A stretch of DNA of 64,000 nucleotides from Patescibacteria group bacterium. Lineage in GTDB: Bacteria > Patescibacteriota > Saccharimonadia > CAILAD01 > JADZBC01. The DNA is taken from contig JBPOIL010000001.1 in NCBI GenBank assembly GCA_052034495.1, positions 14 through 64,013 of the forward strand. Direction: 5' to 3'. Each line of letters begins with the position of its first letter. Positions within the stretch are counted from its first letter, which is position 1. Positions 1-20,694 of this stretch are shown piece after piece. Made by a program: the position numbers and the translations under genes. The notes beneath the pieces are model-generated. The model saw only the letters and a list, made by a program, of their open reading frames with translations. It ran no database searches and had not been told where the DNA came from.

Positions 1-1136
1 TTCGCATCGATGTCCACCGGCTCGAAGCCAAAGGCATCGTTGCCGTACCACTTGCGCCCTGCTGCCCAGTTGACCATATCGCGTTGCTTGGTAGCGACGC
101 TGATGGGGTACACAGGGCCGGGGATCTCCCCGGACCTGACCGAACGCTTGTACTCGATGGCCGGCGAACCGGACTCCGAGCCACGCACCACGATGACGCC
201 CGCGGGCACTTCGATGCTGCGCGCACCATTCCACCGATCGGTCTTGACCGGCATCACGATTACGGGGTTGTCACCCGAGTCGCAGTAGCCGTAGACGTCG
301 CTGAGATCCCAGTGCACGTTGGCGCTGACTTCCTCCCGGATACGGTCCGAGAGGCTGTTGGCGTAATTGCCCGTGATGGCTGCGTCGAGGCGGTTCTTGC
401 CCTCGAAGCGACACTGGTGGACCTTCCCAGCGTCACCATTCCACTCGACGATGCTGTCGATGTGGACGCGCTTGCCTTCGCCGTCGCGGACAGCCGTCCA
501 CTTCCCCTTGCCTTCTCGCGAGGAGATGTAGGCGTAGGTATCGTCCAAGATGTCAGCCTTGGACGAGCCAGTGGCACGCTCACTCATGATCCGTTGGGCG
601 CCAGCCAGCGAGGCGGGGCGCTCTTCGAAACCACTTGCGAGGTAGTTCGTGGGCTTGCCGGCCACGATCTTGGCCGGACCAACGTCATGTCCACCCTCGA
701 GCAGCCGAGCAAGGATGCGCGGAGGCGCGTCCTTATCAGCGTACTCGATCGAGACCGAACGCACGAACGGCGCAGCCTCGAGCTTGGAGTCGGTTCCCGT
801 GACGAAGCCCGCAGGCATGGCCATCAGGATGAACGACACGCAAGCAACCACGGCGGTAACCGTGATCAACACGCCCGGCAAGGAATTCTCATCCTCGTCG
901 TATGACGTGAAGGCGGCAACGCCGAAGCAGATCGCCACCCAAATCAGGCTGAACACCTGACCGGAACGTGACATCGGCGACATGCCGACCTCGTAGGAGC
1001 GCCAGACGGAGTAACCCGCCTGCTCCCACATGAGCCCGGTGATAGCGGCGATGAGCCACCAGACCAGGGCAAGTGCGGCCAGGCCGCCGAACGCGATGAG
1101 GGTCGCGTAACCCAGTTTCTTCAACACGAAGATCAT
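1..1136 (-). CDS. hypothetical membrane protein (3 N-terminal TM helices + soluble domain), truncated at window edge; ~63% GC
   Basis: Manual rc translation from ATG at 1134-1136 (MIFVLKKLGYATLIAFGG...) stays open to position 1. RBS AAGGAGA lies just upstream. It is absent from the ORF track because it has no stop in the window. The listed 84..905(+) ORF is its antisense shadow. Confidence 0.55.
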   Translation of the reverse strand, partial: MIFVLKKLGYATLIAFGGLAALALVWWLIAAITGLMWEQAGYSVWRSYEVGMSPMSRSGQVFSLIWVAICFGVAAFTSYDEDENSLPGVLITVTAVVACVSFILMAMPAGFVTGTDSKLEAAPFVRSVSIEYADKDAPPRILARLLEGGHDVGPAKIVAGKPTNYLASGFEERPASLAGAQRIMSERATGSSKADILDDTYAYISSREGKGKWTAVRDGEGKRVHIDSIVEWNGDAGKVHQCRFEGKNRLDAAITGNYANSLSDRIREEVSANVHWDLSDVYGYCDSGDNPVIVMPVKTDRWNGARSIEVPAGVIVVRGSESGSPAIEYKRSVRSGEIPGPVYPISVATKQRDMVNWAAGRKWYGNDAFGFEPVDIDA

Positions 1137-1323
1137 TCTCCTTGTGGAGGTACGAGCGATTCGGTCGCCGACCGGGATGACGGATGTATGTCCGTCCCAT
1201 TGCGCTCTTCGATCCTAAGCAAAGAGAATGTATGGGACTCCTAGATAATTCCTGTATGATCCCCTAGTTTGATTTCGACGTTTAAGCCCAAATCGCCCGC
1301 GGGGATATTTTTTTGCGCCTATT

Positions 1324-1488
1324 TCACCACTCCCAGATCACGTAATTCATCCACCAGTAGATGGAAAACCACAGACCCGCTAGGAGCAGCATGATGGCGA
1401 CGATGATGGAAGGCCATCCAAAGTCTTTGCGGCGCAGGATTACCCGTGCGACTATCCACAAGACGGAGGCCAAGACCATGTAGCGCAT
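1324..1488 (-). CDS. small hydrophobic ORF (54 aa), hypothetical
   Basis: ATG..TGA ORF MRYMVLASVLWIVARVILRRKDFGWPSIIVAIMLLLAGLWFSIYWWMNYVIWEW. It is below the track length cutoff and flanked by 11-bp direct repeats. Confidence 0.2.
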   Translation of the reverse strand: MRYMVLASVLWIVARVILRRKDFGWPSIIVAIMLLLAGLWFSIYWWMNYVIWEW

Positions 1489-1842
1489 GTGCTACCTTTC
1501 ATAGACATTTTGGTGCAGCGAGAGCGTCGCTGCCACGCACAATAATAAGGAAATTGTCTTACCTGAGAGGTCTAGGATACCCCCTCATGTCAGGTCACGA
1601 TCCTAAGCGCGGCCGATAAACATGAGAGGAGAAACATTCAGTGCTTCTACCTAGACATTTAATAGCTTGTAATAAAAAGCCCGCTTGCTGGAGCCTTAAG
1701 GCTTGCTCCGTGGCGGGTGTTTTCGATACCTATAGCTATTCAAATGTTGAGAACCATTATAGGGCATTAGTTACGGTTTGTCAATACCCTTTTTTGAGGC
1801 TAAATTAAAGATTCTTTAAAAACTTTGCGTATTTATGGCAAC

Positions 1843-1882
1843 GAAAAGAGCCCTCGGCGCAGTGGCCTTGGGCTCTTTTGGA
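1843..1882. terminator. bidirectional rho-independent terminator (AGAGCCC...GGGCTCT flanked by A/T runs)
   Basis: Inverted repeat with a TTTT run on the plus strand and TTTTCGTT on the minus strand. Confidence 0.5.
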
Positions 1883-1895
1883 AATAAGTTCTGGT

Positions 1896-1945
1896 GTCGA
1901 GGGGCGGGGTACAGGAACTAGTCCTGACCCCGCCCCTGCCTCGAC
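1896..1945 (-). terminator. GC-rich inverted-repeat hairpin (GTCGAGGGGCGGGGT / ACCCCGCCCCTGCCTCGAC) immediately 3' of CDS 1963..2325
   Basis: Near-perfect 15-bp inverted repeat. The motif GTCGAGGGGYGGGGT recurs at 17321-17339. Confidence 0.45.
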
Positions 1946-1962
1946 CCGGCAGCAGGCCTACG

Positions 1963-19861: not shown

Positions 19862-19933
19862 TATATGGCAATTCTATCTACCGCACCAGGCTAGCTTGAG
19901 GAGGCAAAGTCAGTCTAGGTTAAATCGAAGGTA

Positions 19934-19962
19934 TTGACCAACTAAGCCCATTATGTTATTAT
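19934..19962 (+). promoter_or_regulatory. sigma70-like promoter TTGACC-17-TATTAT
   Basis: TTGACCaactaagcccattatgtTATTAT. Confidence 0.4.
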
Positions 19963-20018
19963 TTCAGTCTTGTTCGGGGAAACCGTAGTACCCGACTAGA
20001 GCCCACAAGGGGAATCAA

Positions 20019-20570
20019 GTGATCAAGCAGTTGCTGCAGAGCGTGCTCACCATCCTGAGTGCGATGAAGACCAAGGTGGTCGTCAAGGCGACGATCTCCG
20101 CCGACGAGACGATCGGCGCCGACGCCACGGCGAAGACCCGCTTCGACCACATCACCACCTCGCTCCACACGATGGCCACGAACATCGCGGCGATCATCGA
20201 TCCCGAGACGTCGTTCGCCAAGGAGTGCACCAAGGACACCTCCGGGACGATCCCGTTCGGGTTCTACTTCCCGCTCATGGACGGCACGCGCCTCGAGCTC
20301 GAGTTCGGCGTCACGACCATCGGCTACACGCCGACGGCGCGCGACATCCACGAGATGGTGGCCGAGGGCATCGAGCCGACGATCGACCTGATCGGCAAGC
20401 TCATGGGGCAGGACAAGACGGGTGAGGAGATCGAGTCCTGGAAGCGCTCCTCGATCGAGGGCATCCACGAGCAGCTCGGCCTCCCGATGCACCACAGCGA
20501 GCTCGTCGGCGCCACCACCGGCGGCTCCGGCAGCGAGGGCGGCGGGCACGCCACCAACCTCGACGGCTGA
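20019..20570 (+). CDS. hypothetical protein (183 aa), ~64% GC
   Basis: GTG start with AAGGGGAA RBS. High-GC third-position codon usage unlike neighbouring genes. Terminated by twin hairpins. Confidence 0.5.
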   Translation: MIKQLLQSVLTILSAMKTKVVVKATISADETIGADATAKTRFDHITTSLHTMATNIAAIIDPETSFAKECTKDTSGTIPFGFYFPLMDGTRLELEFGVTTIGYTPTARDIHEMVAEGIEPTIDLIGKLMGQDKTGEEIESWKRSSIEGIHEQLGLPMHHSELVGATTGGSGSEGGGHATNLDG

Positions 20571-20594
20571 CCTTCGGGTCAACCACGGCAAAGG

Positions 20595-20666
20595 GGCCGG
20601 GGGAGCGCGTCTCCCCCGGCCACGCGCCACCCATAAGGACCTTTCGGAAGAAGGGTCCTTCTTTCG
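20595..20666 (+). terminator. twin hairpins: GGCCGGGGGAG-cgcg-CTCCCCCGGCC then AAGGACC-N11-GGGTCCTTCTTTCG
   Basis: The second hairpin belongs to the repeated terminator family (see 5311-5348). Confidence 0.5.
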
Positions 20667-20694
20667 CTCACAATAATTTTGCTATCATAGAACC

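Follow-up and report, generated by a model that had tools for sequence, protein, structure and literature searches.

Compact genetic units that stand out from the genome around them have been described in several forms. Genomic islands and islets occur at hotspots, i.e. in a few fixed slots, and have a sharply deviating composition. Phage morons carry their own promoter, ribosome-binding site and terminator and differ in composition from their surroundings, while integron cassettes are small promoter-proximal accessory open reading frames (ORFs) followed by a hairpin-forming sequence. Saccharibacteria and other Candidate Phyla Radiation (CPR) bacteria are rich in orphan genes, and their interaction with their hosts is poorly known. 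Here, we analysed six GC-rich islands located in a 64,000-nucleotide stretch of a Patescibacteria genome (contig JBPOIL010000001.1; hereafter the window), which resemble each of these systems in part. An initial annotation, made from the letters of the stretch, had read them as expression cassettes horizontally acquired from a high-GC donor, for example an actinobacterial host. Comparison with related genomes shows that the islands are predicted transcription units resident in the Saccharibacteria genome, where they occupy a few fixed intergenic slots flanked by conserved housekeeping genes. These slots are also shown to hold a distinct class of lineage-restricted genes without any Pfam domain, several of them coding for small membrane proteins and most of them preceded by a Shine-Dalgarno (SD) sequence.

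Islands and slots in related genomes

The relatives of the window retrieved by a genome scan are metagenome-assembled genomes (MAGs) of Candidatus Saccharibacteria (Saccharimonadia), and on this basis the organism is an epibiont-type Saccharibacterium, as had been guessed. We compared the window with related loci and contigs from JGI, NCBI, ENA and Logan (designated L001, L007, L021, etc.). The related loci with relatives or variants of the island genes at the same positions belong to Saccharibacteria of about 50% GC overall and come from independent assemblies. A backbone is common to the window and the related contigs at 82–92% DNA identity, and contains the genes encoding ValRS, TsaD, two FemAB proteins, PGM, a 297-aa protein, GroES/EL, pirin, thioredoxin/DsbD and HSP20. 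The slots are located between PGM and the 297-aa gene on one side and GroES/EL on the other, between FemAB and PGM, between FemAB and TsaD, and downstream of a tRNA-Arg gene as far as pirin.

The slot of every island is also occupied in relatives (L001–L009, L015–L021 and L025), by homologues or by divergent variants. The gene of island 1 (I1; island genes are named as in Table 1) has 92.4% DNA identity to L001 12860–13990 and is found in L001–L005, its residues 1–378 being 93% identical to the L001 protein. The I2 slot of L004 holds a 122-aa gene that is 39% identical and has the same GC content at the third codon base (GC3), i.e. 0.88. Island 3 is 74–88% identical in relatives; I3b is 80–95% identical to the ORFs found in the same slot of L001 and L004, and I3a has only a core of 10/11 aligned residues (DTAAIRGAP.F) in common with a 32-aa ORF of L001. 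The arrangement of the I4 operon is repeated in an independent Logan contig, and the FemAB–TsaD slot of relatives contains divergent I4 homologues (53–58% identity for I4a, 36–41% for I4c). For I4b, a 52% identical homologue was found in the distant L021, while an unrelated 93-aa gene takes its place in the closer L001. I5a is 95% identical in L007–L014 (92% at the DNA level), and I5b is 69% identical to a gene located elsewhere in the same variable region of L007. Finally, divergent members of the I6 family are present in the same region of L021 (GC3 of 0.98), L025 (GC3 of 0.91) and L007, where an antisense ORF had been called in its place. The initial annotation had named beforehand, as an observation that would refute acquisition, homologues of the island ORFs in the same places of related low-GC genomes, and the island genes do have such homologues.

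The six GC-rich segments exist, with GC contents of 0.623, 0.672, 0.604, 0.602, 0.556 and 0.650 for islands 1 to 6, respectively, against a window mean of 0.495 (49.5%). They peak at 0.60–0.69 in 300-nt windows, among which the standard deviation of GC is 0.06 versus about 0.03 for a binomial distribution. The local background had been put at about 48% and is actually about 0.50–0.54. Island 5 is GC-rich only between about 17515 and 17990; on the left side of the segment first delimited, 220 nt are not GC-rich. Two islands also have another content than first described: island 1 is not a small-ORF cassette but codons 1–378 of a minus-strand gene of about 578 aa that leaves the window, and island 3 is an ORF cassette in its left part only, since 5385–6250 contains no conserved ORF and probably encodes a minus-strand non-coding RNA (ncRNA). 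Moreover, the islands have no repeats in common and are not a repeated family of small accessory cassettes, as had been proposed. Searches for repeats flanking the islands, att repeats and shared boundaries were negative. Of the long ORFs of the window, only a few of which were scanned against family libraries, none looked like a recombinase or integrase gene.

Codon usage differs from that of the neighbouring genes as described. With ORFs re-derived from the sequence itself, the GC3 of the true island ORFs ranges from 0.59 to 0.98, versus 0.41–0.62 for the longer ORFs outside the islands and outside a low-GC cluster (see below). The fraction of codons in island versus backbone genes is 0.97 vs. 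0.33 for ATC, 0.94 vs. 0.50 for TTC, 0.94 vs. 0.67 for AAG and 0.01 vs. 0.28 for GTA. C-ending NNY codons are favoured in the islands (TAC >0.94), and GAG reaches 0.72 for Glu. Amino acid usage of the island proteins is moderately shifted, with more R, G and W and less K, N, Y and Q. Furthermore, the non-coding transcribed parts of the islands have a GC content of 0.47–0.66, compared with 0.29–0.49 for the intergenic DNA of the backbone. As the untranslated regions (UTRs) and spacers of the islands are GC-rich too, the pressure acts on the region or the transcript, and not on codons alone.

The five promoter-like sites quoted in the initial annotation are all present (Table 1). However, near-consensus sigma-70 sites are not specific to islands: 24 were observed in the region (13.9 +/- 4.1 in shuffled sequences), and the perfect ones include those of backbone genes. 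Strong SD sites (AAGGAG, AGGAGG, GGAGGGAG and AAGGGAGGAG) do precede the island ORFs, and GC-rich hairpins are found downstream. In the related loci, a Pfam domain was detected in none of the 14 genes with a GC3 of at least 0.70, versus 40 of the 72 other genes (P = 6e-5). The excess of SD sites in these GC3-rich genes is only a trend (7/14 vs. 18/72; P = 0.10), and a leaderless-type -10 box right before the start codon was found in 0/14 of them versus 14/60 others (P = 0.06).

Many housekeeping genes look leaderless, with a TAnnnT -10 box 4–8 nt before the start and no SD, e.g. TsaD at 9501 and pirin at 20695 of the window, as well as genes of L001, L007, L021 and L035. These signals suggest that two modes of translation initiation coexist in one genome. 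We also observed that public gene calls in the GC-rich islands often take an antisense shadow ORF (high GC1, GC3 of ~0.6) over the GC3-rich frame, as at L001 10915–11427, L007 12890–13567 and L002 7583–8458. Because of such miscalling, the orphan genes are under-represented or misrepresented in protein databases.

The island proteins have no match in Pfam, PHROGs, NCBIfam or PADLOC (I3a and I4c were not in every scan), so that no profile of anti-phage defence (PADLOC) or of phages (PHROG) is matched among the proteins scanned. The I1 and I6 profiles have no relatives in IMG/VR, and the tRNA and Rfam scans detected no tRNA or known RNA in the islands. Most of the island proteins are singletons in 90% clusters; I2 is found in only 4 clusters out of 5.8 billion proteins, and the I6 family is rare too: a word-indexed search gave 7 matches, and full HMMER scanning of 1.84 billion proteins retrieved only 6 representatives. 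The I1 family is larger (59 members in the word-indexed search). The features of this family that are seen in residues 1–378 of the window protein and in its relatives are an N-terminal bundle of transmembrane (TM) helices, conserved cysteines C239 and C282, the motifs YGYCD, PGPVYP and TPLT, and a C-terminal helix. An AlphaFold2 model of the relative P0025 (predicted local distance difference test score of 84.6) has a beta-rich domain in addition to four TM helices and a helix at the C-terminus, without significant structural match in PDB. No structural relative was found for the model of I6 either (score of 77.6). In the I6 family, a strictly conserved C-terminal tail (ELVGA..GGSGSEGGG) is predicted to be disordered. 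The neighbour of I6 in the window, in divergent orientation, is a gene for an ABC transporter of the MsbA/bacteriocin-exporter type (18047–19861, minus strand), a link that is absent in L021.

Age, source and maintenance of the GC excess

The GC excess of the islands is old and a property of the gene that persists across deep divergence. The position of the I1 family between the 297-aa gene and GroES/EL is kept in L018 at only 54% amino acid identity. Across 11 loci, the GC3 of the I1-family gene is 0.68–0.90, with 0.42–0.86 for neighbouring genes, and it is the GC3-richest gene of its neighbourhood in six of the tabulated loci (L018, L035, L033, L042, L043 and, among genes >110 aa, L001). Its GC3 is 0.83 in L001, 0.80 in L016, 0.68 in L017 and 0.73 in L018, the rest of each of these loci having a GC content of 0.52, and 0.79 in L019 (rest of the locus, 0.51). 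It reaches 0.77 in L035 (GC3 of neighbours, 0.42–0.54), 0.90 in L033 (0.65–0.86), 0.86 in L042 (0.44–0.60) and 0.82 in L043 (0.50–0.67). Similarly, relatives of I6 at 34–48% identity keep a GC3 of 0.91–0.98 in loci of 51–52% GC. The synonymous divergence (dS) between the window and L001 is 0.6–1.1, i.e. synonymous sites are near saturation, so that in a gene with the same evolution as its neighbours the GC signal would have disappeared long ago. A GC3 near 0.8–0.98 kept in a 50% GC genome after synonymous saturation is a puzzle.

We then looked for the source of the island genes. A tblastn search of I1 against PLSDB gave 5 matches, all on megaplasmids of Micrococcales (3 Curtobacterium and 2 Pseudarthrobacter), with 25–27% identity over 62–70% of the query, and the alignment of I1 with the plasmid protein by hhalign has a probability of 100% (E = 8e-48, 413 columns). 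The sequences of the plasmid homologues also show the hydrophobic segments of the I1 N-terminus, its motifs and its helix at the C-terminus. In a neighbour-joining tree, the I1 family falls into a high-GC group and one large CPR group. P0072, which belongs to the latter, is carried by a 64% GC contig whose genes are tightly packed and phage- or plasmid-like, and P0083, among the weakest matches of the family, by a 68% GC contig. In addition, a GC-rich orphan gene located beside the I6 homologue of L021 matches small membrane or secreted proteins of phages of Arthrobacter, Streptomyces and Mycobacterium: 10 of its 11 phage matches are with actinophages (best E of 5e-5), the other being one weak match with a Bacillus phage (E = 4e-2). 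Apart from this match, no plasmid or phage match was obtained with other phyla, although these dominate the collections.

The other island ORFs searched (I2, I6 and the small ORFs) have no detectable actinobacterial, plasmid or phage relative. Of the concatenated small orphan proteins, none matched plasmids and only one, from a related genome, matched phages; tblastn of I1 and I6 against phages found nothing, nor did blastn of 1–8000 against plasmids and of 1–6300 against phages. In a local tblastn of all ORFs against the high-GC loci, only I1 was in common, so that no block was transferred. The actinobacterial source proposed in the initial annotation is thus right in kind, with long-range homologues for I1 in megaplasmids and for one related orphan gene in actinophages, but only at long range: close homologues, DNA similarity and relatives of the other island ORFs are lacking, and the proposal is wrong on timing and on the nature of the islands.

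Our preferred explanation, which we hold tentatively, is that the islands are resident, recombination-prone accessory slots whose gene class comes from the mobile pool of the hosts and whose GC content persists through a process linked to exchange. The gene class would descend from the megaplasmids and phages of high-GC actinobacterial hosts, and would have entered long ago rather than recently. Since then, the genes would have been inherited, diversified and swapped among Saccharibacteria lineages by homologous recombination through the conserved flanks. In the weakest step of this explanation, the GC excess would persist by a regional process tied to elevated exchange, e.g. GC-biased repair of recombination heteroduplexes or a more effective selection for GC, and genes replaced now and then from the GC-rich pool may contribute.

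Several observations bear on exchange at the slots. At four-fold degenerate sites, I1 has diverged by 0.156 and I5a by 0.136 between the window and its relatives, versus 0.367 for six flanking genes pooled, and GC-neutral C<->G changes are likewise reduced in I1 and I5a. A younger common ancestor, i.e. recent exchange, accounts for this low divergence no less well than selection on GC3 does. I2, I4 and I6 are far more diverged than their flanks or are mosaically distributed, I4b for instance matching a distant genome and being replaced in a close one. Only the region of islands 5 and 6 adjoins a tRNA gene (tRNA-Arg). The slot next to it (16507–17444) contains an insertion of ~900 bp (~16544–17407) flanked by a 37-nt terminator-like direct repeat (81% identical) and carrying an ORF from 16602 for a membrane protein of ~210 aa, with a D..DG..AR motif, which resembles a CDP-alcohol phosphatidyltransferase by eye. 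L009–L014 are without this segment, and at the same site L007 and L008 have an element of ~8–9 kb encoding a serine recombinase, an SNase and an S24 peptidase; this separate element has a GC content of 0.39–0.56.

Four points weigh against this explanation. An actinobacterial relative was seen for only two of the ~20 GC-rich orphan genes tested. The CPR sequences of I1 form one large clade in the tree, so that I1 may have been transferred in either direction, once or several times. GC-biased conversion in bacteria normally moves GC3 by a few points, not to 0.98. Lastly, the low dS of I1 and I5a could result from selection on synonymous sites, the count of C<->G changes being small (5 observed vs. 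~12 expected by our own estimate). As the process that may keep the GC content high, we prefer a recombination-associated GC bias, with selection on transcripts as the main rival.

Under this rival, which we regard as unlikely, GC-rich, hairpin-terminated and SD-led RNAs would be kept for their stability against the strong RNA-degrading machinery of an RNA-scavenging epibiont, or would be translated only under certain conditions, e.g. when the cell is attached to its host. The codon usage of Patescibacteria, as a phylum, has been reported to complement that of their GC-rich hosts, whose RNA they are reported to catabolise (bioRxiv 10.64898/2026.06.21.733656); the host-like codon usage of the island genes is then an exception. 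GC-richness spans the exact transcribed units, UTRs included, and ends at the AT-rich promoters; the excess is intrinsic across genomes whose neighbouring genes have a GC3 of 0.42–0.86; synonymous divergence is reduced 2–5 fold; and an ncRNA of the same class is GC-rich as well. However, the I6 mRNA folds no better than shuffled sequences (z = -1.3), and the shift in amino acid usage suggests a pressure beyond the RNA level. The GC excess covers whole transcripts and is accompanied by this shift; we tentatively attribute its persistence to a regional process, and translational selection is not its cause.

A recent acquisition, in which islands newly received from a high-GC donor such as an actinobacterial host have not yet drifted, is improbable. 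It would account for the actinobacterial-looking codon usage (GC3 up to 0.98; ATC, TTC and TAC >0.94; AAG 0.94), for the sharp GC boundaries, for island proteins that are mostly singletons in 90% clusters and for the actinobacterial plasmid homologues of I1. However, homologues are found at the same loci in both related and distant Saccharibacteria of ~50% GC, and the GC excess is kept at 54% and at ~30% amino acid identity. Moreover, the closest actinobacterial relatives of I1 are only 25–27% identical, without DNA similarity in plasmids or phages, the I6 family was not found outside the lineage by HMMER among 1.84 billion representatives, and integrases, att repeats and shared boundaries are lacking. 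Same-locus homologues together with a GC excess that outlasts synonymous saturation largely refute this scenario.

The ordinary codon bias of very highly expressed genes is a very improbable cause. The strong promoters, SD sites and terminators of the islands would agree with it, and many highly expressed bacterial genes likewise prefer NNY codons that end in C, but GroEL (GC3 of 0.52), GroES (0.43), HSP20 (0.52) and the pilins of a type IV secretion system (T4SS) do not show the island bias. All of these prefer GAA, and GroEL and GroES of L001 prefer GTA too, while the fractions of AAG (0.94) and GAG (0.72) and the amino acid shifts point to an overall GC pressure.

By analogy with T-DNA genes, which carry plant-type signals, it is conceivable but hardly to be expected that these genes or transcripts, with their host-like composition, SD signals and hairpin terminators, work with the host machinery. 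They might be translated efficiently only with an influx of host RNA, tRNA or nucleotides, or might even be delivered to the host and expressed there. If true, this would explain why the composition belongs to the gene itself in genomes that differ widely in GC; a T4SS-like cluster is located 5 kb away from the islands.

An assembly or binning chimera, i.e. actinobacterial fragments mis-joined in a Saccharibacteria MAG, would fit the MAG origin and the sharp compositional junctions, but can be excluded, since these junctions are seen again in contigs that were assembled independently, with different samples and pipelines (JGI 3300056999, 3300056788 and 3300056850; NCBI GCA_964436255.1; ENA; Logan SRR26425195, SRR26282673 and SRR34217545), with promoters and terminators that are coherent with the flanks. 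Integron cassettes, morons, a repeated cassette family, misassembly and expression-driven codon bias were all considered and rejected.

A candidate structured RNA and other features of the window

The right half of island 3 probably encodes a new structured ncRNA of ~700–860 nt. On the minus strand, a perfect promoter and a terminator bracket a sequence without conserved ORF (Table 1), in which genes are called on different strands and in different frames even among near-identical relatives. The candidate has a length of ~690 nt in relatives, the window having an extra ~170 nt at 5561–5732. In the alignment, its central part is the most conserved (~95% by eye), versus 82–88% DNA identity for the neighbouring genes. 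The fold has a z-score of -3.4, and 97.6% of the 180 pairs of the consensus structure are kept paired, in the same three sequences from which the structure was derived. Compensatory changes were found in 11 pairs, versus 0–2 in slid controls and 4.0 +/- 1.6 in shuffles (0/500 reach this number), and the terminator stem is among the helices that display them. The ncRNA candidate thus combines its own promoter and terminator, no conserved ORF and compensatory changes. No Rfam family was detected in 5385–6250, either in a gathering scan of the whole window or in a scan of 4700–6750 at E <= 1, which gave only a chance-level small RNA match at the I3b terminator. When metagenomes were scanned with a 20-mer of the ncRNA candidate, the single match was unrelated and due to chance.

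Close to this locus, a dispersed intergenic repeat of ~250 nt (72–79% identical, no Rfam match) occurs in both orientations at several places per genome in the lineage, e.g. at 6430–6676 of the window, L001 14748–14998 and 6805–6989, L007 18870–19117 and L016 2970–3229. This repeat may represent either a small RNA or an element of the MITE type. The region 1132–1513, which includes a possible 54-aa ORF, has no match in relatives.

Table 1. Genes and signals of the six islands, by position in the window
Feature	Position	Strand	Remarks
I1 (island 1), first 378 codons of ~578-aa membrane-protein gene	1..1136	-	ATG at 1136; SD AAGGAG; GC 0.625; GC3 0.81; runs off the left window end
Possible 54-aa ORF	1324..1488	-	two hydrophobic stretches; GC3 0.78; genome-specific; status uncertain
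Perfect promoter TTGACA-17-TATAAT, upstream of the possible 54-aa ORF	1784..1756	-	
Two hairpins after I2	1840..1962	-	long GC-rich at ~1885–1940, U-tailed at ~1843–1880; GC 0.63; sequence read directly
I2 (island 2), 120 aa	1963..2325	-	basic N-terminus; SD AGGAGG; GC3 0.88
I2 promoter-like site TTGACA-17-TATGAT	2403..2375	-	
I3a/I3b promoter-like site TTGACA-17-CAAAAT	4690..4718	+	
I3a, 43 aa	4828..4959	+	SD AAGGAG; GC3 0.91
I3b, 60 aa	5112..5294	+	SD AAGGGAG; GC3 0.59
Candidate structured ncRNA, ~860 nt	5385..6280	-	promoter TTGACA-18-TATAAT 6280..6251; terminator 5411..5385; GC 0.61
I4 operon promoter-like site TTGACT-17-TAAAGT	8751..8779	+	
Island 4 operon (I4a, I4b, I4c)	8826..9452	+	GC3 0.78, 0.71, 0.83; hairpin ~9440–9475
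I4a, 59 aa	8826..9005	+	C-terminal TM
I4b, 111 aa	9005..9340	+	
I4c, 41 aa	9327..9452	+	TM
I5 promoter-like site TTGTTA-17-TATGAT	17438..17466	+	
I5a, 81 aa	17515..17760	+	GC3 0.71; long hydrophobic C-terminal half read as two TM helices
I5b, 59 aa	17796..17975	+	GC3 0.70; then hairpin ~17985–18015
I6 promoter-like site TTGACC-17-TATTAT (with TG)	19934..19962	+	
I6 (island 6), 183 aa	20019..20570	+	GTG start; GC3 0.98; two hairpins downstream, 20590–20665

Outside the islands, the tRNA-Arg gene (16411–16487) has the anticodon GCG, the usual anticodon of bacterial tRNA-Arg being ACG. The T4SS-like cluster, with homologues of PF18895-type pilins, extends from 25062 to 41214 and adjoins a set of genes resembling recF, dnaN and dnaA (41487–45365), labels that come from the first residues only. 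If these labels are right, the islands would be located ~25–45 kb from the probable replication origin. A compositional island of opposite sign was also observed, i.e. a cluster of co-directional genes (55436–60979) with 36–39% GC and a GC3 of 0.31–0.45, directly after ORFs that resemble dTDP-sugar genes by their first residues. Judging by where it lies, this may be a polysaccharide or glycosyltransferase cluster that was acquired horizontally.

Comparison with described systems

A literature search found no prior description of this gene class. Integron cassettes differ from the islands in the array, the integrase and the attC site: the islands form no array, a repeat search found no attC site after the ORFs and no attC-like repeat family shared among them, no integrase was seen among the long ORFs of the window (a few of which were scanned against family libraries), and each island has its own promoter. 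In contrast with morons, the islands are not in a prophage but between housekeeping genes, and the proteins scanned match neither PHROG nor, for the I1 and I6 profiles, IMG/VR. As for the ncRNA candidate of island 3, it resembles the GOLLD, ROOL, OLE, HEARO and raiA classes in being several hundred nt long and GC-rich, with many conserved helices, its own promoter and terminator, and no ORF. It differs from them in matching no Rfam 15 model, even at E <= 1, and in being known from three sequence variants in one Saccharibacteria clade; if true, it would add to the few large ncRNAs known in CPR bacteria.

The islands also resemble genomic islands in that one of the few slots lies next to a tRNA gene, that their accessory content of unknown function varies between close relatives, and that they are remotely connected with mobile elements from another phylum. 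Their composition and codon usage deviate as in a genomic island, but the loci of relatives are not empty, and neither close donor homologues nor mobility signatures were found. The islands also differ in that the deviation is to a higher GC, that it persists in orthologues, that no integrase, att site or repeat accompanies it, and that most of the cargo is without homologue outside Saccharibacteria. Composition alone separates one class of orphan genes, which are conserved in position and fast or mosaic in their evolution, and whose remote homology points to the plasmids and phages of the host phylum. This gives a shortlist of candidate host-interaction genes, and a new membrane-protein family shared by an epibiont and the mobile elements of its hosts.

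The closest described relatives of this family are uncharacterised membrane proteins of Micrococcales megaplasmids, e.g. WP_111232433.1 of Curtobacterium pS16 (L038) and WP_012622915.1 of Pseudarthrobacter chlorophenolicus pACHL01 (L039). These megaplasmids encode mostly hypothetical proteins and, unusually for plasmids, SecY, SecG, DHFR, RtcB, an RNA ligase and a DNA ligase. The plasmid proteins differ from the I1 family in being only 24–27% identical and in standing apart from the large CPR clade in the tree. However, they have the same architecture as I1, with N-terminal TM helices, the motifs YGYCDG..P.(I/V)VVP, PGPVYP and TPLTP, and a C-terminal coiled helix.

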